Assembly: GCA_964410105.1 (NCBI GenBank)
Contig: CAYPFY010000005.1
Span: 35,427-99,426 of the forward strand
Reading direction: 5' to 3'
Source: an uncultured Chlorobiaceae bacterium
Lineage (GTDB): Bacteria; Bacteroidota; Ignavibacteria; UBA10030; SZUA-254
Length of the DNA: 64,000 nt
This document shows, piece by piece, positions 13,903-28,150 of this stretch. The position numbers were made by a program, and so were the translations under genes. Position 1 is the first letter of the stretch, and every line of letters begins with the position of its first letter. The notes beneath the pieces were generated by a model, which did no database searches, was not told the DNA's origin, and worked only from the letters and a program-made list of their open reading frames with translations.

Positions 13903-16047
13903 TCACCGGACAAGGAGGAGTTTTCTGGCGGCGAAAAACGATCCGGATTGCAGCGTGCAGAGATAAACACCGCTCGGATACCCTTTCGCATCCCACGAAA
14001 TCTTGTAAAAACCCGGCTCCATTTCCTTTGAGACGATCGACGCGATCTCCCGCCCGATGAGATCGTAGATCCTGATCCTCACAAACCCTCGCCTTGGAAC
14101 TGCATACTCGAATGTCGTCCCTGGATTGAAGGGATTCGGGTAATTCTGGCTGAGTGAAAATTTTTCGGGGAGGGGTCGCGTTTCCCCCGCCGAGGTGATC
14201 ATCTCAGATAAAGGCCGCCGCCATACTCCACCTCCATAAATTCCGGCAAAAATTTCCGTGCCCCTGATAGCAAGCGAGCGAACATCGATATTCACAAGCC
14301 CTGCGACCGCCAGAGCCCAGTTCTGGCCGTTGTCGTTTGAAACGTATATCCCCCAGCCGATCGTGGCGGCAAAAATATTCGACCCTGAGATCGCCAGGGA
14401 GGAGATTCTCCTGTGATCGAGTCCGCTATTGATCTCTGACCAGCTCAGCCCCCGGTCGGTGGACAGGAAGACGCCGGCTCCATCTGTGCCGGCAAAAATG
14501 CTCGAATCCCTGACAGCAAGCGTTAGGATTCCGGAGAGTTGGGGAGGTGTAGGAAGGAGAGCCCAACTCACTCCCCCGTCGGTTGAACGAAAAATGCCCG
14601 GGCCCGAGCTTCCGGCAAGGACGGCAGGAACGCTTCCCGTGTCTCCGGGGATTACGGCCAGCGCTGATATCGTGGATGCTGTAAGTCCTGAGTCGGCGCT
14701 GAACCACGTGCTTCCGTCGTCGGTCGTCCTGAAAATTCCGTTCCCCTCAGTTCCCGCAAGGGCAATCGATCCCCCTGAGCCATCGGGGAATGAGGCGAGG
14801 GTGAGCACAGACATATTTTTCAGCCCGGGACCAAGCCACGTTGATCCGTTATCGGAAGAGACGAAGACACCTCCCCCGCTCGTTCCCGCGAAAATGGTCT
14901 CCCCGCTTTTCCTATCTCGTCCGACGGCAAGGGAGTAGGTGTCGTGGGTCGTCATCCCGCTTGTCCGTGTGGTCCATGCGGATCCTCCGTCGGTTGAACG
15001 GGAAACACCATTGATCGCACCTGCAAAAATCTCCGAATCGGTGACTGCAAGCGAGTGGACGAGAGTAGCGTTGAATCCTGCATTGCTCTCGGTCCAGGTC
15101 GACCCCTCATCGGTCGATCGGAATACGCCGCAGGCTTGCGTCCCGGCAAGCAGTATCCTCGCGCCGGAGATCTCGGCGAACACAGCTAGCGAGAAGACAT
15201 TGAGGTCGGTCAGGCCAGAGTCTGCGTGTTCCCAGTGGGCGCCCGAATTCGTCGAGCGAAAAACCCCATGTGAACCACCGACACAAACAGTATACTTGCC
15301 AAGATTGTTGGGCATTCCGACAATCGTTCGCACGTCGGCGTCGACGAGACCGGAATCGATCTCAAGCCAGCTGCCTCCCCTGTCGGAAGAGAGGTATACC
15401 CCTGAGCCAGCGGTGCCCGCAATAATCACCGTATCGAGGGCGAAAAGGGCCCGAATTCCGAAAGGCGGGAGATCCCCGGTGACATCGTTCCAGCTGATTC
15501 CATTATCAGTGGATCGATAAACCCCCGCGCCCGCTGCGCCAATAAAGATCTCCGTATCGAGCACAGCGACTGAGGTGAACCCGTCTTCCGGGAGGCCGGA
15601 CCTGGTTGTGTCCCAATTCATTCCGTTGTCGGTGGAAATGAACATACCCTGGTCAGTCCCCGCAAAAACGGTCGACCCTCTTGCGGCGAGGGACAGAATC
15701 GAGGCACTCCCGATCGGTCCGACAAAATTCTGGTACCAGGTGGATCCGCCATCGCTCGAGAAGAGGATGCCGTCGGAGCTCGTTCCGTAAAAGATTGACG
15801 AATCGTTGAATGCGAACGTCTGGACCGAAGAGCCAATGAAATCGTAGGCTGATTTCCAGCTCAGACCCTTGTCCGTTGAATGATAGAATCCCAGATCGGA
15901 CGTGCCGAGGAAGAGTTCAGAATCATGGACCCCAAACGACAGGACGAATCCGCCACGGGGGCCATTGGTCGGTTGCCACTGGGCAACGGATTTTAGGGAT
16001 GGAAAGGTCGCGGCGATGACCGTTAAGAGAATAAGCCGTGTTTTCAT
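13903..16047 (-). CDS. Secreted Asp-box (BNR) repeat beta-propeller protein with T9SS-type C-terminal domain
   Basis: Signal peptide (SVA|Q), 13 SxDxGxxW-type Asp-boxes counted, C-terminal SQNYPNPFNP...GVY...RKLLLVR. Confidence 0.85.
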   Translation of the reverse strand: MKTRLILLTVIAATFPSLKSVAQWQPTNGPRGGFVLSFGVHDSELFLGTSDLGFYHSTDKGLSWKSAYDFIGSSVQTFAFNDSSIFYGTSSDGILFSSDGGSTWYQNFVGPIGSASILSLAARGSTVFAGTDQGMFISTDNGMNWDTTRSGLPEDGFTSVAVLDTEIFIGAAGAGVYRSTDNGISWNDVTGDLPPFGIRALFALDTVIIAGTAGSGVYLSSDRGGSWLEIDSGLVDADVRTIVGMPNNLGKYTVCVGGSHGVFRSTNSGAHWEHADSGLTDLNVFSLAVFAEISGARILLAGTQACGVFRSTDEGSTWTESNAGFNATLVHSLAVTDSEIFAGAINGVSRSTDGGSAWTTRTSGMTTHDTYSLAVGRDRKSGETIFAGTSGGGVFVSSDNGSTWLGPGLKNMSVLTLASFPDGSGGSIALAGTEGNGIFRTTDDGSTWFSADSGLTASTISALAVIPGDTGSVPAVLAGSSGPGIFRSTDGGVSWALLPTPPQLSGILTLAVRDSSIFAGTDGAGVFLSTDRGLSWSEINSGLDHRRISSLAISGSNIFAATIGWGIYVSNDNGQNWALAVAGLVNIDVRSLAIRGTEIFAGIYGGGVWRRPLSEMITSAGETRPLPEKFSLSQNYPNPFNPGTTFEYAVPRRGFVRIRIYDLIGREIASIVSKEMEPGFYKISWDAKGYPSGVYLCTLQSGSFFAARKLLLVR

Positions 16048-16990: not shown

Positions 16991-17001
16991 GAAGCTGATC
17001 G

Positions 17002-17087
17002 CCGTTAGGGGTGTCCCGCCGGCAAACGCGGGACTGAGAATAATACCCTAGGAACCTGATCTGGATGATGCCAGCGTAGGGAAACGG
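17002..17087 (+). ncRNA. TPP riboswitch (THI element)
   Basis: P1 ccgtt/aacgg, GGGGTGTCCC...GGGACTGAGA, ACCC, CCTGATCTGGATGATGCCAGCGTAGGGAA; upstream of thiamine-related genes. Confidence 0.95.
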
Positions 17088-17095
17088 AATCCTGG

Positions 17096-17144
17096 AATGC
17101 CGTTTTTCTGATCCTCCCGATCAGAAAAGCGGCATTTGTTTTTT
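17096..17144 (+). terminator. Intrinsic terminator: riboswitch expression platform
   Basis: 18-bp stem aatgccgtttttctgatc / gatcagaaaagcggcatt (one G-U), 5-nt loop, then tgtttttt. Confidence 0.88.
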
Positions 17145-17155
17145 GGAGAGACATC

Positions 17156-19465
17156 ATGAAGAATCTCATCCTGTTACTCGTTGGGACTGTCACAATTCTG
17201 CACGCGCAGGACGCCTCCGGGCAGGACACTGCAATTTACTACTTCCCCCCCGTCACCGTCAGTCCGACGGCGGCGTTTGAGAGACAGACCCCTGTCACAT
17301 TCTCGAATTTGACCAGGGAGCAGATACAGGATCGCTACTCCATTCAGGATGTCCCGGTTTTGCTCTCTGAATTGCCGTCGATCACCTATTATTCGGAGAA
17401 TGGAAACGGCATCGGATACAGTCACCTGAACCTGCGGGGATTCGAGCAGCGCCGGCTCTCGATAATGGTCAACGGGGTTCCACAGAACGACCCGGAGGAT
17501 CATGACGTCTACTGGATCGATTTCCCCGATCTCATGGCGGGGGCGGAAAACATCCAGGTGCAGCGCGGGGCCGGGAGCGAATTCTACGGACCTCCTGCGA
17601 TAGGCGGTTCGATCAATATCATCACGAATCCGTTCAGTCAGAGGCCGGGGGTGCGCCTGGAGAGCTCCTTTGGTTTCCAGGAATTCGGGGATAGCAGCGA
17701 ATCGGTCATGCTCGGGACCCGGAAATTCCAGGCATCCGTCAATTCCGGGCTGATTGACCGCCGGTATCTGATATATGGAAAGCTCGGAAAAATCGTGAGC
17801 AACGGGTACAGAATAAACTCCTGGGCCGAGCTCAATTCCTACTTCCTCGGCGCCGTGCGGATTGATGAAAACATGACCACCCGCATCAATTTCTATGGGG
17901 GCCCCATTCAAGATGCCTTGGCCTACGTAGGGATCCCCAAGTCGTACAACGAGGACAAGCGGCTGCGGAGGATCAACTATAGCGACTGGGCATATGACAG
18001 CACGGGGATGAATCTTTCGTACAGCGTCCTGCAGAAGCCGCAGGCCACGGAGGAATTCTCGCAGCCTCACTACGAGCTTATTCATGACTGGAGAATATCG
18101 AGAGAAGTCGCGCTCCACAACACCCTTTTCTATCTGCAGGGAGACGGGTACTTTCTTTACGACGGCGACTGGATCCCGTATCCCGATGCGAACGGAAACC
18201 CGACCCCCTCCATACTCTGGTTTCGCAACAATGTGGGGTACGACTCCACCTTCGGCGTATCGACATTTCCTGCGTTCATCATCAGGGGCTTCGTCGGCAA
18301 CAAGCAATGGGGGTGGCTGCCGCACCTGGAGATAAACCATGGCACCGGGAATCTCATCCTCGGGGGCGAAGTCAGGATACACCGTTCCCTTCATTACGGT
18401 AAAATCGAGTATGCCTCGCAATACCCTTCCGCCTCCTTTGACCCCGACTTCAGGATCTACGAATACAACGGCGAGAAGGACATTTTTTCGCTCTATGGTC
18501 ATGAGCTGTACCGCGCAGACGAAAAGACAAACGTCATGGCGGAGATCCAGCTTGCCTGGAACCGTTACGGAATTCAAAACGAGAAATTTCTGGGGAACAA
18601 CTTTTCCTACCCCTATTTCTTCGTCAATCCCCGCATCGGGCTGAACGAGAATTTTTCCGACAACCTCAATGCTTACGCATCGGCAGCCTACACATCGAGG
18701 GAACCGACGCTCAGGAACCTCTATGCTGCGGAGGACACCTATTTTGGGGCAGCGCCGCAATTCAGGGGAGACACCACAGGCGGGGTCGTCCGCTATGACT
18801 TCACCCAGCCGCTGGCTCAGCCTGAGCATCTTCTTGACATCGAAGTGGGGGGGTCACTCAAGACTGTCAGGGCACAGCTTTCAGCAAGTTTCTTCTGGAT
18901 GGAATTCACCGATGAGCTCGTCAAGAGCGGGCAGGTGGACATCTTCGGCCAGCCTGTAACAGGCAATGCCGAGCGAACACGCCATCTTGGGGTCGAGATT
19001 GAGGGTTCGGCTGGGCTCTCGGATGCCATCACGATTGGGGGAAACGCGGCGATCTCGAGCAATCGTCTTATCCGGCACACCGAATACGTTCCTTCCACCG
19101 ATGCGACGGGGGCAGCGGTGTACGCGCCGGTTTCGCTCGACGGAAACCCGATCGCGGGCTTTCCCGACTTTCTCGGGAACCTGCGGCTCTCGTACCGGGG
19201 AGGAAGCATTGCGTCCTCGCTCACGGTCAAGTATGTGGGGAGTTTTTACACCGACAATTTCAAGAACGAGGCGAATAAGAACGACGACTATATCGTTGTC
19301 AACGGCGAAATCCTGTTGGATCTCCTAGGATTCAACTCGGAGTTCACCCTTCGGGGCGAGGTGCGGAATATATTTAACAGGCTGTACTTTGCTGGCGGGG
19401 AAGGGGAAAAATTTTTCCCGGCGGCCGAGCGGAATTATCTCTTCGGGATCGTGGCGAGATTCTGA
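17156..19465 (+). CDS. TonB-dependent receptor, probable thiamine uptake
   Basis: Signal peptide (LHA|Q), plug motifs LRGF..R...NGVP.ND and IQVQRG...GG.INI, C-terminal NIFNRLY...F; under TPP riboswitch control. Confidence 0.88.
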   Translation: MKNLILLLVGTVTILHAQDASGQDTAIYYFPPVTVSPTAAFERQTPVTFSNLTREQIQDRYSIQDVPVLLSELPSITYYSENGNGIGYSHLNLRGFEQRRLSIMVNGVPQNDPEDHDVYWIDFPDLMAGAENIQVQRGAGSEFYGPPAIGGSINIITNPFSQRPGVRLESSFGFQEFGDSSESVMLGTRKFQASVNSGLIDRRYLIYGKLGKIVSNGYRINSWAELNSYFLGAVRIDENMTTRINFYGGPIQDALAYVGIPKSYNEDKRLRRINYSDWAYDSTGMNLSYSVLQKPQATEEFSQPHYELIHDWRISREVALHNTLFYLQGDGYFLYDGDWIPYPDANGNPTPSILWFRNNVGYDSTFGVSTFPAFIIRGFVGNKQWGWLPHLEINHGTGNLILGGEVRIHRSLHYGKIEYASQYPSASFDPDFRIYEYNGEKDIFSLYGHELYRADEKTNVMAEIQLAWNRYGIQNEKFLGNNFSYPYFFVNPRIGLNENFSDNLNAYASAAYTSREPTLRNLYAAEDTYFGAAPQFRGDTTGGVVRYDFTQPLAQPEHLLDIEVGGSLKTVRAQLSASFFWMEFTDELVKSGQVDIFGQPVTGNAERTRHLGVEIEGSAGLSDAITIGGNAAISSNRLIRHTEYVPSTDATGAAVYAPVSLDGNPIAGFPDFLGNLRLSYRGGSIASSLTVKYVGSFYTDNFKNEANKNDDYIVVNGEILLDLLGFNSEFTLRGEVRNIFNRLYFAGGEGEKFFPAAERNYLFGIVARF

Positions 19466-20083
19466 ATGCGGGCCCTCATCATCGCCAACGGCTCTATTCC
19501 CGCCGCGGATCTAACCCGTAGGACAGCTGCGCGGTCGGGGCTGATCGTCTGCGCGGACGGCGGGGCAAACCATGCACGTGAATTGGAGATTGTTCCCCAC
19601 GTCATAATCGGTGATTTCGACTCCGTCGTGCCTTCGACACTGCAATACTTCAGCGGGGCAAGACAGCTCCGCATCGCAGATCAGGATAGCACAGACCTTG
19701 AGAAGGCCATCAAATTCTGCATCGAGCAAAAAGCATCGCAGATTGATGTGATCGGTGCCTCGGGAGACCGCGTGGACCATGTCACCGGCGCACTCGGATG
19801 TTTCAAGAAATTTCCGAAAGCTCACCTTGAGCTGATCGACAGCGTGGGGACGCTGAGCCGCATCGATGGTCTTGTCACATTCGAAGCTGCAGCGGGTGAG
19901 AAAATTTCGCTTATACCTCTTGAGCGCTGCACGGGGATTACGACGGAAAACCTGCTCTATCCTTTACAGGATGCCATGCTCGAGTTGGGAGTGCGGGAGG
20001 GTATCAGCAACCAGGCGGTAGGGCGCCCGGTGACAATCTCGGTCGTGACCGGAACACTGCTCCTTTACCGGTTTCACCGATGA
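19466..20083 (+). CDS. thiN: Thiamine pyrophosphokinase
   Basis: LIIANG, CADGGAN, IGDFDS, DQDSTDLEKA, GDRVDH, GISN motifs. Confidence 0.93.
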   Translation: MRALIIANGSIPAADLTRRTAARSGLIVCADGGANHARELEIVPHVIIGDFDSVVPSTLQYFSGARQLRIADQDSTDLEKAIKFCIEQKASQIDVIGASGDRVDHVTGALGCFKKFPKAHLELIDSVGTLSRIDGLVTFEAAAGEKISLIPLERCTGITTENLLYPLQDAMLELGVREGISNQAVGRPVTISVVTGTLLLYRFHR

Positions 20084-20123
20084 AGGCTCACCCGATTGTC
20101 GCCCGACGGAGGAGTAATCCCCG

Positions 20124-21548
20124 GTGATCCATCTTGCCCCTTCCGACATCGCAGTCATCTTCCTCTACTTCGGTGCTGTGATTTTTGTTGGTTTCCGGGC
20201 GGCCCGGAAGTCACGAGGCACCGAGGAGGATTTCCTTCTCGCAGGCCGATCGTTGACACTGCCGATTTTCGTCATGACCCTGGTATCCACCTGGTATGGA
20301 GGCATACTCGGAGTGGGAGAGTTTTCCTACCGGTACGGCATATCGAACTGGGTTGTGCAGGGCGTTCCATATTACATCTTTGCGGCCATTTTCGCTCTGT
20401 TCCTCGCCAAGAAGATAAGGGCAACGGGCCTCTACACGATCCCCGATAAGCTCGAGGCAGAATACGACAGGAAGACTGCGATTCTTGGATCGATCCTGAC
20501 CTTTATACTGATGACGCCCGCTCCCTACATCCTGATGCTGAGCGTGTTTCTTCAGATGCTCTTCGGATGGAGCATGGCTCTTTGCCTGTTTGTCACTGCG
20601 GTCGTGGCGGCCTCGTACCTTTATGTCGGCGGATTCCGATCTGATGTCGAGACTGACGTTCTCGAGTTTTTTCTCATGTTCGCCGGATTCGCGGTAATAC
20701 TTCCCTTCAGTTACATGAAATTCGGTGGAACAGATTTCCTCACCTCGCACCTCCCCCCCTTGCATCTCACATGGCACGGGGGCAATTCGGCGCAGTACAT
20801 CATAGTCTGGTTCTTCATTGCCCTCTGGACACTCGTCGACCCAGCGTTTCATCAGCGATGTTATGCAGCAAAGGATGGGTCTGTCGCGCAACGGGGGATT
20901 CTGATTTCCATCATATTCTGGCTCGCGTTTGATTTCTTGACCGCGACGGCCGGGCTTTACGCCCGGGCGGCGATCCCGGGCCTGAGCGAGCCGATGAGGG
21001 CCTATCCCCTGCTCGCGGAAACGGTGCTCCCCCCCCTAGCCAAGGGTCTCTTCTATGTCGGAATGCTTGCGACAATCATGTCGACACTCAACACACTAGC
21101 CTTTGTTTCGGCACAGACCCTAGGCAGGGATTTTTGGCTGCGTTTGAAGGGGATACCGCTGGGATCGGCCTCATCGGAACAATCATCTCTGCGTTCAACT
21201 CAGGCGTGTCTTGTCATTTCCTTTCTTTTGTCCATAGGCCTGGCCCTCTTGATACCGAGCGTGATCAACATGTGGTATACGATCGGCACGGTGATCATCC
21301 CGGGATTATTGATTCCATTAATGTCCAGTTATTTCGTGCGGTGGAAAATCGCGCCCGGCATGGCATTCCTTTCAATGCTATCAGGATGGTTGGTTTCGTC
21401 CGGGTGGTTAGTCGCGGGACAGGGTCAAGGGGGCGGCTATCCACTCAACGTTGAACCGATGTATCCCGGGCTGGCAGCATCGGCCTTTGTCTGGATCTGG
21501 GGACGGAGATTCTCTTCCCCAGATCAGACGCTGAATACGCAAGCCTAA
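20124..21548 (+). CDS. Sodium:solute symporter (SSS) family, probable thiamine or thiamine-precursor transporter
   Basis: FLLAGRSL, STWYGG, GGFRSDV.TD, QRCYAAK, ATIMSTL, about 13 TM helices. Confidence 0.88.
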   Translation: MIHLAPSDIAVIFLYFGAVIFVGFRAARKSRGTEEDFLLAGRSLTLPIFVMTLVSTWYGGILGVGEFSYRYGISNWVVQGVPYYIFAAIFALFLAKKIRATGLYTIPDKLEAEYDRKTAILGSILTFILMTPAPYILMLSVFLQMLFGWSMALCLFVTAVVAASYLYVGGFRSDVETDVLEFFLMFAGFAVILPFSYMKFGGTDFLTSHLPPLHLTWHGGNSAQYIIVWFFIALWTLVDPAFHQRCYAAKDGSVAQRGILISIIFWLAFDFLTATAGLYARAAIPGLSEPMRAYPLLAETVLPPLAKGLFYVGMLATIMSTLNTLAFVSAQTLGRDFWLRLKGIPLGSASSEQSSLRSTQACLVISFLLSIGLALLIPSVINMWYTIGTVIIPGLLIPLMSSYFVRWKIAPGMAFLSMLSGWLVSSGWLVAGQGQGGGYPLNVEPMYPGLAASAFVWIWGRRFSSPDQTLNTQA

Positions 21549-21788: not shown

Positions 21789-23435
21789 CTATTTCATGAG
21801 AAGCATCTTCTTCACCTGTTGAAACTTCCCGTTGTTTGCAACGATCCGATAAAAATACGTTCCGCTCGCAAGATCCGATGCGTTCACATCCACCTCATGG
21901 AGGCCCTGGGAGTAGTACTCGTTATGAACCAGGGTTCGCACTTCTCTCCCCAATAGGTCATAGATCGTTAGACTAACGGGTCCGGGTTCCCGAAGAGTGA
22001 ACCGTATCTTGGTAGCCGGATTGAAGGGATTCGGATAGTTCTGCGAGAGTTGATATTGATTCGGGTCGGATGCAGACTGTGGAGAACCCCCAACGAAGGC
22101 GGCGCGCGACGTAAAAGTACCTCCGGTATAGTACTTCACAAGGAACAGATCCTGCGGAAGCCCGCTGAGGGTATTCTGATTTGTGGAGCCGAAGAGCACC
22201 AGACTGCTGTCATTATTGCTCGACGCCATGCCGACGCAGAGATTGCCGAGGCCGCCACCTCCGGCATTGCTCGGATCGTATATGGTTTCCGATTGGAATG
22301 TGCCTGAGGAATTAAATCTGTCAAGAACATACTTCGTAGGACTGGCATTTGTCGTCCCGCTGGTATAGAAGTCCCCGGTTGTCCCATTAATCCTGATGGT
22401 AGTCCAGGTGGAGGGCGTCGTAGCATCTCCCGACCATGCGTTCACCCCTGTCGTCTTGTCGATCTTGAAAAACTGTGAGCCGTTTGCGTGATACCCAGCA
22501 GCATAAACGGCGTTGTTATCTATAGCCATTCCTCCCGACGCAAACTGGAACGATGAGCAATTATACGAGCGGTTCGCCCAGCTTTGAGTTCCCGAGGGGG
22601 TATATTTGATGGTGGCGACATCGGCGTCGCCGCACGACGCGTAGCTGGTGCCGGTTACATAGCATCCGGACGTGTCTGCGATCAGATTCAGAGGAAGGTC
22701 GGAGCCCCCATTATCGTAGGTTTTCACCCACTGCTGGGCAATATTCAGGTCATACTTCACGGTGAGATAGTTCGGATTGGAGCTCCCTGCCTTGGCGAGC
22801 ACATAGATCGCCGAATTGGGAACCAGGGCAGCGCCTACGACGATATCCGAGTCCCCGCTGTCGTAATGACTGTCTCCCTGGAAGCCGAGAACGGCGTCGT
22901 ATTTCAATATCGTGACGTCGTATTTGGTGGAAACAGTGACCCTGCTCATTCCGACAACGTAAAACACGTTTGATCCGGGTCCTGCTGGCAGGATTTTGAC
23001 TGCGTCGTCATTTCGGTTAAGGGAGTTATAGTCATACCGTTTCACGTTGGAATTGCTCATGACGGTTGTTCCCCCCGTATCGATAACAAAGGATGCTATG
23101 TCGTAATCGGTACCGGACTGGCTCTTCCCAGTAATAAACAGGTAGGAGCCCTGGACGGCGATTGATTTCGCCTGGTCGTTATTGCCATTGTCGTACGTCT
23201 GCAACCACTTCAGCACACCGTTCCGGTCGAACTTTGCAACAAGATAGTCATACTCATTCGACGTATTCTTGATCCACCCGGCGACATAAATATTGCCGTT
23301 TACATCGACCGCCGCGTCATTGATCTGGTCATCCTTTCCATAACCGTCAAGTTGCAGTTTAAATTTATATGTTGGTTGGCCGAACGCGCTCGTGAGGCCG
23401 ACGCAAAGAAGACCTATGAGAATAGAGAATTTCAT
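21789..23435 (-). CDS. Secreted beta-propeller (SBBP-like repeat) protein with T9SS-type C-terminal domain
   Basis: RBS GGAGG, ATG 23435, signal peptide (AFG|Q), repeats of the type D....AVD..GN.YV.G......D....K.D..G...W...YD, C-terminal SQNYPNPFNP...KKMLLMK. Confidence 0.85.
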   Translation of the reverse strand: MKFSILIGLLCVGLTSAFGQPTYKFKLQLDGYGKDDQINDAAVDVNGNIYVAGWIKNTSNEYDYLVAKFDRNGVLKWLQTYDNGNNDQAKSIAVQGSYLFITGKSQSGTDYDIASFVIDTGGTTVMSNSNVKRYDYNSLNRNDDAVKILPAGPGSNVFYVVGMSRVTVSTKYDVTILKYDAVLGFQGDSHYDSGDSDIVVGAALVPNSAIYVLAKAGSSNPNYLTVKYDLNIAQQWVKTYDNGGSDLPLNLIADTSGCYVTGTSYASCGDADVATIKYTPSGTQSWANRSYNCSSFQFASGGMAIDNNAVYAAGYHANGSQFFKIDKTTGVNAWSGDATTPSTWTTIRINGTTGDFYTSGTTNASPTKYVLDRFNSSGTFQSETIYDPSNAGGGGLGNLCVGMASSNNDSSLVLFGSTNQNTLSGLPQDLFLVKYYTGGTFTSRAAFVGGSPQSASDPNQYQLSQNYPNPFNPATKIRFTLREPGPVSLTIYDLLGREVRTLVHNEYYSQGLHEVDVNASDLASGTYFYRIVANNGKFQQVKKMLLMK

Positions 23436-23843
23436 TGCGACCTCCAATGGTTTTAGAGTTTTTTTCTGTTTTCCTGCCTGCGCAAAAGAAGGAGTGCGCT
23501 CTGGCGTGGCAGACGCACGGGCGACACGGATCATCCTCTCAGTCCGTCCCTTTCCAGTCTATGGTGAGACTTTTGCAAAAGTGCGCTGGATCCGTCGACA
23601 GCTATGGGTAGTGGGCAGGGAAGGCCCTTGCGAAATCGTCCCCAGAAACCGAGGCTCGATTACAGACCAGTTCCCCCGTCAACGCTTCTATGGCTTATGC
23701 ACTGACGACTGCCTCCCGGATGGGGGAGCCCCCGGCCCAAAGCTCTGCGAAACGAGATCTCTCTGCGCCTATCCTGGATTGTTACCCGGAGAATTCAGCC
23801 TCTCCGGGTTTCGAGGGTGAAGTGGTGAAACGAAGGTAATGTC

Positions 23844-23872
23844 AATGTATGCGGAACGAGGGGATGCCGCAA
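23844..23872 (-). promoter_or_regulatory. Sigma70-like promoter for the beta-propeller gene (TTGCGG-N17-TACATT)
   Basis: -35 at 23872-23867, -10 at 23849-23844; same register relative to the operator as the cassette promoter at 27070-27098. Confidence 0.7.
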
Positions 23873-23912
23873 TGGGGTATATACCTATATATGAGGGGGG
23901 TGAACACCCCAT
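23870..23912. promoter_or_regulatory. Operator copy 1: two GGGGT-N4-ACC(C/T)-type inverted repeats 23 bp apart; candidate binding site of the NarL-type regulator
   Basis: caatggggtatatacctatatatgaggggggtgaacaccccat; 36/43 identical and ungapped versus 27096-27138. Confidence 0.8.
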
Positions 23913-23937
23913 CATCCGTGGGGCGTTCGCAAACCGG

Positions 23938-24579
23938 TTATTTCACAATTCCTTTCAGAATCGCGTATCGGGTGAGTGTAATGGCATCGTGGAGGTCCAG
24001 TTTATTCATGATCTGCTGCCGGTACTTTTCGATCGTCTTAGTACTCAGGCAGAGCGTAGAGCTGATTTGTGAATTCGTTTGACCGATGGATATACACTGA
24101 AGGATTTCGCGTTCCCTGAGCGTAAGAACCGGTTCGAGGGGTGTCGCGCCGCGGATCTGAAGAATCGCCTTCGAAACGGTGGGGCTGAAATAAGCGTTTC
24201 CTTTCTTGATCTCACGGATTGCGAAAATCAGCTCGCTGGAGGCGGTTTGCTTTACAAGATAACCTCGTACCCCTGCCTGGATCGCGTGCGTAACGCATTC
24301 CACATCATCTGACATTGAAAGAATGATCAGACCGATGGAGGGGTCGCACTCGTGGATTCTGGCCGCTGCCTGGAGCCCATTCATCTCCGGCATGGTGATA
24401 TCCATGATCACGATCGAAGGTCGAAGATCCCGGGCGAGCTCGAGAGCGTCGTTCCCCGTGGCGGCTTCTCCGACCACGGTGATATCAGGTTCTGCCGAAA
24501 GGAGCGCTTTCAGCCCCTGCCTAAAAATTGTATGGTCGTCAGCCAGCAGCACGCCGATTTTCGACATTTTTTCCCTCAC
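23938..24579 (-). CDS. NarL/FixJ (LuxR-HTH) family response regulator
   Basis: LLADDH, MDITMP (phospho-Asp), GYLVK, LTLREREIL...G.TN..I...L.LS.KT...Y; GTGA overlap with the kinase stop. Confidence 0.95.
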   Translation of the reverse strand: MREKMSKIGVLLADDHTIFRQGLKALLSAEPDITVVGEAATGNDALELARDLRPSIVIMDITMPEMNGLQAAARIHECDPSIGLIILSMSDDVECVTHAIQAGVRGYLVKQTASSELIFAIREIKKGNAYFSPTVSKAILQIRGATPLEPVLTLREREILQCISIGQTNSQISSTLCLSTKTIEKYRQQIMNKLDLHDAITLTRYAILKGIVK

Positions 24580-25820
24580 TTCCCCGGCATGGGAAGCCTC
24601 ACATGGAGTGCGGTTCCCCGGCCGGATTTTGAATTGATATCGAGACTGCCTCCCACAAGTTTCATCCGCTCCTGCATTCCGAGCAATCCGAGATGGGGCC
24701 TCGAGCCGTCAAAGTTGCGGCTGACGTTATCGGGGTCAAATCCACGGCCATTATCCCGGATGGCCAGCACGAAACACCCGTCCTCCTGGGAGCACTCCAC
24801 AGCGACACTGGTCGCTGAAGCGTGCTGAGCGATATTGGTGAGCGATTCCTGCAGAACTCGGTAGAGCGCCAGCTTCTCCGAGCGGCCGAACAGCTCTATC
24901 GAGGGGCATTCGACAAAATCAATGGCCACTTTTGTCCGATTTGAGAATTCTCTCAAATATCCCCGGACGACAGGCAGGAAACCCACCTGGTCAAGCGATT
25001 CGGGGAGAAGATCCTGAAGAACCTGCCGCACCCTCCCCATGACCTCGCGGGTCAGGTCCTGAGCATCCTGTAGCCGGTCGTGGGCGTCTTTCGTTGCAAT
25101 TCCCGGATCCTTTTTCAAGACCTCCAGGTTTATGGTGATCGCGGCCAGCGTCTGACCGATCTCGTCGTGGAGTTCGCGTCCGATCCGCAGACGATCATTT
25201 TCCTGCACCTGGATGACCTGACGGCTCAACTGAGCCAATCGGTCCTGCATCGCAACCGCCTGGTGGAGCAGCAATTCGGATTTTCGCCGAGCGGAGCGCA
25301 GGGTACGGTCATAGCTCACCCGCTCGGTGATATCCCTGGCAATGCCCCGAACGGCCCTGGTCTTGCCATTGTCGATCACGGGCGAACTCCGAAATTCGAA
25401 CACGAACAATCGTGACTTATCCCTGGAGAAAACCGGGATCACTCCCGAAACTTCCTTCATGGAGTCGGCAACAGCCTTCAGATATCTTACAAATTTTGGA
25501 CGCATTCCTGGGGAGAGAAAATCGGTGACATCCTTCCCGATAAGCGCATCCGGCGGGTATCCGAGCAATGTCGAAGCAACCCGATTCACGCTCAGGACAA
25601 CGCCCGTCGCCGAGTGGACATAGACCAGATCCGAGACATTTTCGAAAAGATCGGCGTATCTCCGCTCATTCTCCTCAAGGAGCGCAAAATGTTCCCTCTG
25701 CAGTCTGGCCTTTGTCCTCTCGTTCAGGAAAAGGAGCGCGACCATTCCGATCCCGAGGGTAAGGGCGACGATCGTTCCTACAAGGAGGATCCACCAGAAC
25801 TCAGATGTTGGACCGGACAT
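24576..25820 (-). CDS. Sensor histidine kinase: 1 TM + PAS + HisKA_3 + HATPase_c
   Basis: True start ATG 25820 (MSGPTSEFWWILLV). Single N-terminal TM, PAS (LFENVSDLVYV...RGIARDIT), RELHDEIGQ, RVLQESLTN, DNGRGF, GLLGMQER. Confidence 0.93.
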   Translation of the reverse strand: MSGPTSEFWWILLVGTIVALTLGIGMVALLFLNERTKARLQREHFALLEENERRYADLFENVSDLVYVHSATGVVLSVNRVASTLLGYPPDALIGKDVTDFLSPGMRPKFVRYLKAVADSMKEVSGVIPVFSRDKSRLFVFEFRSSPVIDNGKTRAVRGIARDITERVSYDRTLRSARRKSELLLHQAVAMQDRLAQLSRQVIQVQENDRLRIGRELHDEIGQTLAAITINLEVLKKDPGIATKDAHDRLQDAQDLTREVMGRVRQVLQDLLPESLDQVGFLPVVRGYLREFSNRTKVAIDFVECPSIELFGRSEKLALYRVLQESLTNIAQHASATSVAVECSQEDGCFVLAIRDNGRGFDPDNVSRNFDGSRPHLGLLGMQERMKLVGGSLDINSKSGRGTALHVRLPMPGK

Positions 25821-26437
25821 AGGAAAGCCAAGGCAAAACAGATATTTGTCGCGATGGTGAGGCTCCAGTGCAAAACCCAGACGCCGATTGCTTCCTGAAC
25901 ATGGAAGTTCGTCAACACATTCAGGAGCAGGAAGAGCGTCATATTTCCCGCAAAATAAACGATGACCCCCGCAACTGCCCACACCCGGAAATTCCGGCTC
26001 AGCGGCGAGGCCCCCGCGGAACGGATGGCGAACACAGCTCCGACAGCGGCGGCGATCATCACCGCGGAGGTGACAGCTTTGGTAAACTCGGCCTGGCCGG
26101 AGAGAGGTTCAAAAGTGAACTTGGAGATCAGCCAGAATCCCGAATACGCAAGAATGCTCCATCGCAACAGCTTTGCAAACGTTCGGCCCTTTTGCCACGG
26201 AGCGACCAACATACTCAGCACGGCAAATTCTATCAGATTATAGACATGGAGGACCCACAAGTTCTGCATGTGCCGGATAGCCATGAAGAACGTGACAAAT
26301 TCGGTTGTCGCGCCCAGCGAAACATACGCAAGGAGCAATCTCCGCTCCTTGTCAAGAAGCGATCTCCTGTAAAAACTGGCACCTAACGGCAGGGCGTTAG
26401 ATGCCAGATCAACATACGCAAGGAGAGGAAGATTCAC
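25778..26437 (-). CDS. Standalone polytopic (about 7 TM) membrane protein, candidate co-receptor of the kinase
   Basis: About 7 hydrophobic segments, NLWVLHVYNLIEF and W...G..VYF.GN...F motifs; 3' end overlaps the kinase start by 43 nt. Confidence 0.75.
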   Translation of the reverse strand: MNLPLLAYVDLASNALPLGASFYRRSLLDKERRLLLAYVSLGATTEFVTFFMAIRHMQNLWVLHVYNLIEFAVLSMLVAPWQKGRTFAKLLRWSILAYSGFWLISKFTFEPLSGQAEFTKAVTSAVMIAAAVGAVFAIRSAGASPLSRNFRVWAVAGVIVYFAGNMTLFLLLNVLTNFHVQEAIGVWVLHWSLTIATNICFALAFLCPVQHLSSGGSSL

Positions 26438-26455
26438 GCGTTCGGGATCGGATCG

Positions 26456-26875
26456 TTACCGTTCGAGAGCGCTTTTTCCATCACAGATTGGTGGACAAGG
26501 AAACCCGTACTCAAGTATGTTACCGCCGGTTAGATCCGCGCCGGTCGCGTCGATCCCCACAATTACCAGAGCAGATGCTCCGGTGAGTTTCCTGCCGTAA
26601 TAGGCACGAATACCGACGCATTGCGGCTGATTCAAGACTGCGAGCAGAGCGTCGCGAGAAAAAACTTCTCCCAGGACAGAACCGGTCGCCGCTGAGTTCT
26701 TGAAATTCTTCACAAGCTCAACGGCATCGCTGAGCGAAATCGCATGACTCTCGTGACCCGTGAACTGAGAGGATTGGGCCCGGAGCTCGCCCTCGGGGGA
26801 AACCTGCCATAAAGATACGATAAAGATTGCAAAAAACAGAACTCGGGCAGGCGAAAGGTCATGATTGAACGTCAT
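26456..26875 (-). CDS. Small exported protein with CVGIRAYYG and C-terminal PCPPIC motifs (function unknown)
   Basis: Strong RBS AGGAGG, signal peptide ending ELRA|Q, mature part about 106 aa with 3 Cys; first gene of the cassette. Confidence 0.8.
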   Translation of the reverse strand: MTFNHDLSPARVLFFAIFIVSLWQVSPEGELRAQSSQFTGHESHAISLSDAVELVKNFKNSAATGSVLGEVFSRDALLAVLNQPQCVGIRAYYGRKLTGASALVIVGIDATGADLTGGNILEYGFPCPPICDGKSALER

Positions 26876-27069
26876 AATTCCTCCTATAATAAAAGATTGA
26901 TAGAATCAGTTAATGTGTTTCCGGAGGGATAGAAGTCAGCCACATCATGCGCGTCCCCTGCTGATCCGATCATGGACTCACCGGGGCTTAATTGGTGAAG
27001 GAAAGGTCGACGTGAAACGGAGATGATTCCCCTGGGACTCCTTTCAGAGAGGTTGGGGTCGTCTGTAAC

Positions 27070-27098
27070 AATTTAACCGTGGAAACCCGATCCATCAA
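27070..27098 (-). promoter_or_regulatory. Sigma70-like promoter of the signalling cassette (TTGATG-N17-TAAATT)
   Basis: -35 at 27098-27093, -10 at 27075-27070. Confidence 0.7.
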
Positions 27099-27160
27099 TG
27101 GGGTATACACCTATTTTCGGGGGGGGTGATTACCCCATGGGGAGGGGGGTCATCACCCCC
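27096..27160. promoter_or_regulatory. Operator copy 2: three GGGGT-N4-ACC(CC) inverted repeats starting at 27100, 27123 and 27146
   Basis: ggggt-atac-accta, ggggt-gatt-acccc, ggggt-catc-acccc with exact 23-bp periodicity. Confidence 0.8.
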
Positions 27161-27355
27161 CACTTTCAGAGAATGGCTGAGGTTCTTTAAGAAACTCTGA
27201 GAAACTTACTGCGATTCTAGCGAAGGAGTGGTGCCACGTTGGTAGGGCAGTCGCTACCGGGTTTCTGGATCTGTCAGACGACGAGGAAAGTGGATCTGGT
27301 CAGACTGCAACGGATCGACGCACCTTGCAATCGTCCGGCTGTCAGATTGCGGGTT

Positions 27356-28150
27356 TTAGAGCAATTCAGCCCTGAACACCGTTCGTGCCTTTCCCGCCAG
27401 CTTAACGCGGTCGCCGTTAGTCCGCAGGTAGAGCACGCCGCCGCGCGGGGATGCCTGATAGGCGACGAGGGAATCTTTCTTGAGCTTCGCCGCCCAATAG
27501 GGGCCCAGGGCGCAGTGCGCTGACCCGGTCACGGGATCCTCGTCAACGCCGGACCCCGGGGCAAAGAACCGGGAAATGCAATCGTATGGAGGCGAGGCGC
27601 GGCTCGTTACCATGACGCCCCGCACCGGGATCTGTTTCAGAGCGCGGTGGTCGGGATTCATTCGTCTCACCGTCTCTTCGGAATCCACCTCGACGAGGTA
27701 ATCAAATTGATTTTTCCCAACATAGAGAGCGGACACGCCGAGCCCCTCGAGAAGCAATGCAGGAGGTTCAGCCCTGGTTTCGGCCTTCGCGGGAAAATCC
27801 AGCTCAATACGCTCTCCGTCTTTGCGTGCAGTGAGGGTCCCGCTCTTCGTATAAAACTGGGCCAGGCCCGGTTTCAGGAATTGAAATTCCCAGAGAACAT
27901 GAGCGCTGGCGAGAGTTGCATGACCGCAGAGGGCGACCTCGACAGAGGGAGTAAACCAGCGGAGATCGTAGCCGTCTCCATTCCGGTGAAGGAAGGCCGT
28001 TTCGGAGAGATTCATCTCCATCGCCACATTCTGCATCCAGACAGGATCGGCCTCTTGGTCGAGAATGCAGACGGCCGCGGGATTTCCCGAATACTCTTTA
28101 TCGCTGACAAACGCGTCGACCTGAAACAGGGGGATCTTCGACATCATCAC
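27356..28150 (-). CDS. PhzF-family isomerase/epimerase
   Basis: QVDAF...GNPAAV, NLSETAF, RWFTP..EV.LCGHATLA, EDPVTGSAH motifs. Confidence 0.92.
   Translation of the reverse strand: MMMSKIPLFQVDAFVSDKEYSGNPAAVCILDQEADPVWMQNVAMEMNLSETAFLHRNGDGYDLRWFTPSVEVALCGHATLASAHVLWEFQFLKPGLAQFYTKSGTLTARKDGERIELDFPAKAETRAEPPALLLEGLGVSALYVGKNQFDYLVEVDSEETVRRMNPDHRALKQIPVRGVMVTSRASPPYDCISRFFAPGSGVDEDPVTGSAHCALGPYWAAKLKKDSLVAYQASPRGGVLYLRTNGDRVKLAGKARTVFRAELL

Follow-up and report, generated by a model that had tools for sequence, protein, structure and literature searches.

Locus and gene content

A stretch of 64,000 nucleotides of contig CAYPFY010000005.1, from an uncultured Chlorobiaceae bacterium, is referred to below as the window. 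On its minus strand lies a cassette of four genes, running from 26875 down to 23938 and ending with the gene for a NarL/FixJ-type response regulator; downstream of it is a gene for a secreted beta-propeller-repeat protein, which starts at 23435. Each of these two units stands behind one promoter-like sequence that abuts a 43-bp box of tandem palindromes, box B preceding the four-gene cassette and box A preceding the propeller gene. Taken together, the observations described below indicate that both boxes are probably tandem operators of the cassette's own regulator, which would activate both promoters and thereby exert positive feedback.

The first gene of the cassette (26456-26875) encodes a secreted protein of 139 aa; it has a signal peptide and an alpha/beta domain, and its C-terminus carries a CPPxC motif that is invariant. 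This protein has no match in Pfam or NCBIfam, and a Foldseek comparison of its AlphaFold2 model (mean predicted local distance difference score 84.5) with the PDB found no fold match with E<0.09. Its family nevertheless counts 3219 representatives at E<=1e-3, among them tandem-duplicated proteins of ~250 aa, and a family member is conserved as the first gene across cassettes. The second gene (25778-26437) encodes a 219-aa polytopic membrane protein with about six transmembrane (TM) segments, for which the GTG start at 26437 is preferred because the resulting N-terminus, MNLPLLAYVDLASN, is conserved in orthologs; it has no Pfam match and no PDB match by sequence profile. The third gene (24576-25820) specifies a 414-aa sensor histidine kinase with TM, PAS, HisKA_3 and HATPase_c regions, and it adjoins the gene for the 209-aa response regulator (23938-24567), making the two a candidate cognate pair. 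The regulator combines a REC domain (Pfam Response_reg, 3.7e-26) with a GerE helix-turn-helix (1.2e-15), and its nearest solved relatives in the PDB are VraR, NarL, DevR and DesR. Since the first two genes are strictly co-conserved with the kinase and regulator, this arrangement suggests that their products are accessory sensor components. A literature search found no description of this four-gene system.

The propeller gene (21789-23435) is separated from the regulator gene by 500 nt. It encodes a 548-aa secreted protein with a C-terminal sorting domain of the type IX secretion system (T9SS), identified by Pfam Por_Secre_tail and TIGR04183, along with SBBP repeats, and its start at MKFSIL (23435) has a GGAGG 7 nt upstream. 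Together with the regulator's closest relatives, the T9SS sorting domain assigns the organism to Bacteroidota in the wide GTDB sense.

Some further features of the cassette genes deserve mention in their own right. The 5' end of the 6-TM gene, which is conserved, contains a terminator-like 13-bp hairpin with a T-run (26376-26407, minus strand), as well as a 22-nt direct repeat (26314-26335 and 26404-26425, 90 nt apart) that encodes a repeated LLAYV(D/S)L peptide; these may represent an internal attenuator between the first gene and the rest of the cassette, or a mere coding repeat. Hymenobacter chitinivorans was considered as a cultured model for this circuit and rejected, as its homolog is duplicated and lies outside any two-component cassette. 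In that organism the tandem-duplicated homolog (L101, 7509-8744) sits beside a gene for a PF03860 protein (Csp, copper storage protein), a neighbour that hints, if weakly, at a metal- or redox-related function of the CPPxC protein.

Two copies of a tandem palindromic box

Box A (23870-23912, CAATGGGGTATATACCTATATATGAGGGGGGTGAACACCCCAT) and box B (27096-27138, CAATGGGGTATACACCTATTTTCGGGGGGGGTGATTACCCCAT) align without gaps at 36 of 43 positions, and the promoters to which they belong are ~3.2 kb apart. A repeat search lengthens the pair to 50 nt at 80% identity (23863-23912 and 27089-27138), a level reached by only one other repeat pair in the window (61514/62656). Within box B and its upstream flank, three palindromes follow one another: a proximal site at 27100-27113 (site 1B; minus strand TAGGTGTATACCCC), centred at about -43.5 relative to the predicted transcription start site (TSS), a middle site at 27123-27136 (site 2B; GGGGTGATTACCCC) centred at about -66.5, and a distal site at 27146-27159 (site 3B; GGGGTCATCACCCC) centred at about -89.5, which is an exact GGGGT-N4-ACCCC although its position is unconserved in most orthologs. 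The propeller promoter repeats this layout, with site 1A at 23874-23887 (minus strand TAGGTATATACCCC; about -43.5) and site 2A at 23897-23910 (GGGGTGAACACCCC; about -66.5), while the distal site 3A at 23920-23933 (GGGGCGTTCGCAAA), which begins 5 nt past the regulator stop codon, is degenerate and keeps one half-site. Site 1B ends 1 bp ahead of the TTG of the -35 element and is part of the most conserved element of the alignment described below (TAGGT-N4-ACCCC-A-TTG).

The strict form of the repeat is confined to these two places. GGGGT-N4-ACCCC occurs exactly three times in the 64 kb (23897, 27123 and 27146), where we estimate that ~0.1 occurrences of an exact 10-base pattern would be expected by chance at 56% GC. 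The shorter GGGGT-N4-ACC occurs five times (23874, 23897, 27100, 27123 and 27146), in every case within one of the two intergenic regions and at a step of exactly 23 bp. When two mismatches are permitted in GGGGT-N4-ACCCC, the count (32 found versus 35.5 expected) falls to chance level, and therefore only the strict motif is special.

Directly after each box, on the minus strand, lies a TTG-N17-TAnATT sequence. In copy A this comprises a -35-like hexamer TTGCGG (23867-23872) and a -10-like hexamer TACATT (23844-23849), separated by a 17-nt spacer and predicting a TSS at ~23837. Copy B has TTGATG (27093-27098), of which TTG alone is conserved, and TAAATT (27070-27075), again with a 17-nt spacer, and its predicted TSS is at ~27063. 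The predicted leaders measure ~190 nt from the copy B start site to the ATG at 26875 and ~400 nt from the copy A start site to the propeller gene; the latter folds no better than shuffled sequences (z = +0.6). An earlier note, made by a model from the letters and a list of open reading frames, had already described the 36/43 match, the 23-bp periodicity, the third sites at 23920 (degenerate) and 27146, the promoter elements and the layout of the genes, and each of these was confirmed on direct comparison.

The same hexamers can equally be read as a promoter of the Bacteroidota -33 TTG / -7 TAnnTT(TG) type. The consensus for the primary sigma factor of Bacteroidetes is -33 TTTG / -7 TAnnTTTG (PMC7366714), and the present promoters resemble it in conserving TTG and TAnnTT some 20 nt apart, in a host that has T9SS cargo and whose relatives are metagenome-assembled genomes (MAGs) of Bacteroidota and Ignavibacteria. 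Among the 23 orthologous sites described below, ATTG and TAnATT are conserved whereas the trailing TG is found in a minority, and the window's own copies, which read TACATTGA and TAAATTGT, fit the ordinary TTG-N17-TAnATT equally well. Adopting the -33/-7 type would shift the predicted TSS by a few nucleotides at most.

The architecture is conserved beside orthologous cassettes

The closest relatives of the regulator, at 51-63% identity, come from MAGs labelled 'Bacteroidota bacterium' and from Ignavibacteriales MAGs, and the contigs on which they lie carry the same four-gene cassette. The earlier note had proposed motif discovery upstream of homologous cassettes, and phylogenetic footprinting of this kind recovered the motif at 23 sites in 11 organisms. 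An initial search of the orthologous loci was limited to strings resembling ACCCCATTG, in which the proximal half-site is joined to the TTG, and gave 11 sites, all of them at promoter positions. All 11 have a second palindrome exactly 23 bp upstream and a TA-led -10-like box (mostly TAnATT) exactly 20 nt after the TTG, even though neither feature was part of the search. Further cassettes were collected by a metagenome scan with the small CPPxC protein, and matrix matches at these loci contributed additional sites.

The final alignment, which spans organisms of 36-56% GC, has the consensus ..[T/G]AGGT-N4-ACC[T/C][A/C]-C..aaa-TAGGT-N4-ACCCC-A-TTG-N20-TA-n-A-T-T. The 1-bp register between site 1 and the TTG is invariant across all 23 sites, TA-n-A-T-T follows the TTG by exactly 20 nt in nearly all of them, and most have a palindrome 23 bp further upstream than site 1. 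Viewed against this consensus, GGGGT is this organism's GC-rich form of a TAGGT/ACCTA-like half-site.

Upstream of the cassette, ten other organisms carry two to three [T/G]AGGT-N4-ACC[C/T][C/A] palindromes ~23 bp apart. The architecture precedes the first gene in L006/L007, L008, L009, L011, L012/L014, L066, L067, L070 and L071, which have 36-55% GC and regulators 51-59% identical to that of the window, and no close cassette whose upstream DNA can be read lacks it; in L009 it can be seen even though the end of the contig cuts the array. In L006, L012, L067 and L071 there is also a second copy right after the regulator stop codon, ahead of the next gene, as in the window. Additional copies stand before a divergent papain-family peptidase gene in L006, before a small helix-turn-helix gene in L008, and before genes for a PD40 propeller together with large secreted or T9SS proteins in L054 and L036. 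As L054 is another contig of the same MAG as L007, the regulon evidently reaches beyond the neighbourhood of the cassette. A single common target family was considered and rejected, since the targets differ among genomes and the pair of a PD40 propeller with a large secreted protein is shared only by L036 and L054.

The complete motif is rare

The specificity of the motif was assessed with a matrix built from the foreign sites alone, the window sites being excluded. This independent matrix scores the two window promoters at 39.0 bits (27138, minus strand) and 37.7 bits (23912, minus strand). The scores that follow, 7.6 and 0.4, come from the same box again, on the opposite strand or one repeat out of register; everywhere else the window reaches at most -3.0, where the background has a mean of -68 and a standard deviation of 14. 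Given this gap in scores, the window holds exactly two such promoters. A lone match to the upstream-site matrix (22715-22732, plus strand; CGTAGGTTTTCACCCACT, 17.7 bits) lies inside the propeller gene and, having neither a partner site nor a promoter, is probably due to chance.

An exact scan for AGGT-N4-ACCCCATTG-N20-TAnnTT was also run over 185,579 species-representative genomes, among which the source genome is not included. It returned 49 matches where we estimate ~70 by chance, and most of these are coincidences within coding sequences of unrelated taxa. The only matches that also have the upstream palindrome (site 2) are L064, L054 and L036, all of them Bacteroidota MAGs. The earlier note had held that its interpretation would fail if the motif were common irrespective of context; both within the window and across these genomes, it is not.

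Covariation of operator type and recognition helix

The recognition helix K-T-[IV]-E-K-[YH]-R-Q-Q is common to all orthologs with the GGT-N4-ACC operator. More distant cassettes with the same gene order come from genomes of ~0.7 GC and have a regulator that is ~30% identical, with the helix T-[IV]-T-F-H-R. In these high-GC cassettes (L081, L083, L085, L087 and L089) a different 20-bp palindrome, GACTATAACATCTTATAGTC, is present in two copies upstream of the small-protein gene. This palindrome can be written as GACTATAA-CATC-TTATAGTC, that is, GACTATAA-N4-TTATAGTC, and it likewise has a 4-bp centre. Operator type and recognition helix thus covary across the cassette subfamilies.

Dimers of GerE-type helix-turn-helix proteins use palindromes with a 4-bp centre. 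The cassette regulator is favoured as the binder because the motif travels with the cassette, because this geometry fits GerE-type dimers, and because operator and helix change together. To judge from this combination of sequence features, it is very probable that the cassette's own NarL-type regulator binds the row of palindromes.

Two further loci bear on half-site recognition. In L015 (6283-6557), a paralogous regulator that is 55% identical lies behind stressosome-like RsbR/S/T/U genes and a HisKA_3 kinase gene, and the intergenic region there contains repeats of the GGGGTGTTGCCCACC / GGTAGGGTTTCAACCCACC type, so related regulators may read related half-sites. Upstream of small-protein homologs in L073 (~2780) and L079 (~4180) we observed a single palindrome, ATACCTA-N4-TAGGTAT (or ATACCGA-N4-TCGGTAT), which has the half-site letters of the window operator in flipped orientation and resembles the NarL 7-2-7 arrangement.

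Proposed circuit and alternative explanations

In the circuit that we propose, one regulator dimer would occupy each 14-bp palindrome ([T/G]AGGT-N4-ACC[C/T][C/A]; here GGGGT-N4-ACCCC), so that two to three dimers would sit side by side at 23-bp steps, with the promoter-proximal dimer, at about -43.5, ending 1 bp upstream of the -35 TTG. Upon phosphorylation by the adjacent PAS/HisKA_3 kinase, the regulator would recruit RNA polymerase to two weak promoters. From the one with its predicted TSS at ~27063 the four-gene cassette would be transcribed, and from the one with its predicted TSS at ~23837 the neighbouring T9SS-secreted propeller protein. A class II-like activator fits this layout because the sites lie wholly upstream of the -35, because the -35 is conserved in its TTG only, and because the register between site 1 and the TTG is invariant; the positive feedback loop would follow from one promoter heading the operon that encodes the regulator. 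What we infer from this pattern is that the regulator binds and activates, where transcription starts and what kind of signal is sensed. The earlier note had proposed an autoregulated regulon on the grounds of a shared operator placed identically at two promoters, one of which heads the regulator's cassette, and footprinting, the foreign matrix, the rarity of the motif and the covariation with the helix all lend support to that proposal.

Several observations weigh against this circuit. The leaders (~190 and ~400 nt) are long. A stricter sigma-70 scan called neither promoter, because the match to the -35 is limited to TTG, which is indeed the only part of that element to be conserved. Copy A has a degenerate third site, and between genomes the distal sites are unconserved. 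A second promoter behind the regulator gene does not occur in every genome, as L011 and L066 lack it. The 23-bp period corresponds to ~2.2 helical turns and is therefore non-integral, compared with 21 bp in DevR. A terminator scan found no terminator between the regulator gene and box A, so read-through into the propeller gene may occur. Finally, repression by a dimer so close to the -35 is also conceivable in principle.

That last point is the basis of one alternative, in which the cassette regulator does bind the palindromes but represses or acts dually, occluding the -35 flank until a signal arrives and thus establishing negative autoregulation. Site 1 does end 1 bp from the -35 TTG, and the sequence does not fix the sign of regulation. 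We nonetheless regard this alternative as unlikely: the sites span about -37 to -96 and cover neither the -35, the -10 nor the TSS, the -35 is poor beyond its TTG, as is typical where a promoter depends on an activator, the distance to the TTG, strictly kept at 1 bp in 23 sites, fits contact with polymerase, and DevR, a characterised relative with the same layout, is an activator (PMC3177182). Repression by the cassette regulator is accordingly less consistent with the site positions than activation would be. It is also quite improbable that another transcription factor, encoded elsewhere, binds the palindromes and that the cassette is merely one of its targets. Sites do occur on contigs without a cassette (L054 and L036), yet the genome of L054 has the cassette on another contig, the motif is present in every close-subfamily cassette with readable upstream DNA, the operator type shifts along with the recognition helix in the distant subfamilies, and a palindrome with a 4-bp centre is what would be expected of GerE-type dimers.

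The remaining explanation, that the repeats act as RNA, as terminator or attenuator hairpins of the upstream PhzF and regulator genes, or are selfish DNA resembling repetitive extragenic palindromic (REP) or miniature inverted-repeat transposable elements, we consider hardly credible. Each palindrome is able to form a hairpin of 5-7 bp, the window copies fold somewhat better than shuffled sequences (z = -1.5 and -2.7), and copy A begins 5 nt after the regulator stop codon. However, there is no U-tract, and an ortholog of 36% GC is unstructured (z = -0.12) yet keeps both the sequence motif and its register. In L006, L008 and L054 the array lies between divergent genes, where no transcript ends, and only two copies, without flanking repeats, are found in the 64 kb. 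Neither the boxes nor the leaders have an Rfam match, whether at the gathering threshold over the whole window or at E<=1 over 23350-27400. An intrinsic terminator or REP-like repeat was therefore rejected, there being no terminator call at either box, no conserved fold and two copies only in the window. Activation of both promoters by the cassette's own regulator remains our preferred explanation.

Implications for an uncharacterised two-component module

A candidate cis-regulatory code, TAGGT-N4-ACCCC-A-TTG-N20-TAnATT, emerges from these observations. It would apply to a two-component system that is uncharacterised and belongs to uncultured bacteria of the Bacteroidota/Ignavibacteria type, a group for which there has been almost no prior knowledge of regulation at the level of promoters. 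The motif permits regulon prediction straight from MAGs, ties the two-component system to secreted T9SS cargo and flags two conserved proteins as likely parts of a sensor. More broadly, and as a possibility somewhat less likely than not, the operator may mark an undescribed but widespread four-component module in which the CPPxC and 6-TM proteins would be obligatory co-sensors (e.g. of a surface redox or metal cue) with the PAS/HisKA_3 kinase and the NarL-type regulator. Each subfamily would then have its own co-evolved tandem palindromic operator, and in Bacteroidota the module would control a varying set of proteins that are secreted by the T9SS or exposed at the surface, such as propellers, a papain-like peptidase and giant adhesin-like proteins.

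Other features of the window

Elsewhere in the window, a thiamine pyrophosphate (TPP) riboswitch at 16997 (72 bits) is the only Rfam match. It lies directly upstream of genes for a TonB-dependent receptor, a thiamin pyrophosphokinase and a sodium:solute symporter, and the region 16997-21548 (plus strand) looks like an operon for thiamine uptake and salvage. Repeats of ~35-52 nt with a 123-nt period (14244, 14367, 14490 and 15021) occupy 14225-15055.

Comparison with known systems

The regulator belongs to the same family as NarL, although its score against the NCBIfam NarL model is 133 bits where the cut-off is 250. The earlier note had likened the half-site to the NarL heptamer TACYYMT, and the ACCCC core does resemble TACCCC. 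This likeness did not hold up in the alignment, in which the base before ACC varies (C, T or G) across the 23 sites and only ACCYY is shared. The arrangement differs as well, since the half-sites here are everted (GGT...ACC), in contrast to the NarL 7-2-7 arrangement of facing heptamers with a 2-bp gap, and the consensus outer bases are TA/TA (TAGGT...ACCTA). With the T of TAC unconserved and the arrangement opposite, a NarL-heptamer operator was rejected.

The LiaFSR/VraTSR systems of envelope stress in Firmicutes are similar in that VraR structures are the nearest solved relatives of the regulator (4e-35) and in having a HisKA_3-type kinase. In these systems the autoregulated operon of the kinase also includes, ahead of the kinase gene, one for an accessory membrane protein. 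The 6-TM and CPPxC proteins of the present cassette, however, have no detectable similarity to LiaF or VraT, the kinase contains a PAS domain, and the operator sequence differs.

DevR/DosR of Mycobacterium tuberculosis, a member of the NarL subfamily, offers the best-studied parallel. It too has a HisKA_3-type kinase as partner of a REC+GerE regulator, a PDB comparison of the window regulator puts DevR among the best matches (5e-28), and in both cases the regulator's operon has the operator in front of it. The Dev box consensus is itself a palindrome with a 4-bp centre. Both systems place at least two tandem palindromic boxes with the proximal one by the -35, the positions in our case being counted from predicted TSSs; for DevR the boxes lie at -42.5/-63.5, number at least two, and are bound cooperatively in a manner that depends on their spacing (PMC3177182). 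DevR also positively autoregulates Rv3134c-devRS (PMC3177182). The present system differs in its half-site, [T/G]AGGT, in its period of 23 bp versus 21 bp, in its occurrence in a Bacteroidota/Ignavibacteria-like phylum with a promoter possibly of the -33/-7 type, in the two extra conserved genes of the cassette, and in having secreted proteins as targets. Regulons of the proposed type, in which a NarL-type two-component regulator controls its own operon from tandem palindromes by the -35, are already known; the novelty lies in the operator itself, in the secreted proteins that make up its regulon and in the four-gene module, which is uncharacterised. As the circuit logic is that of the textbook, the finding extends known biology and does not overturn it.

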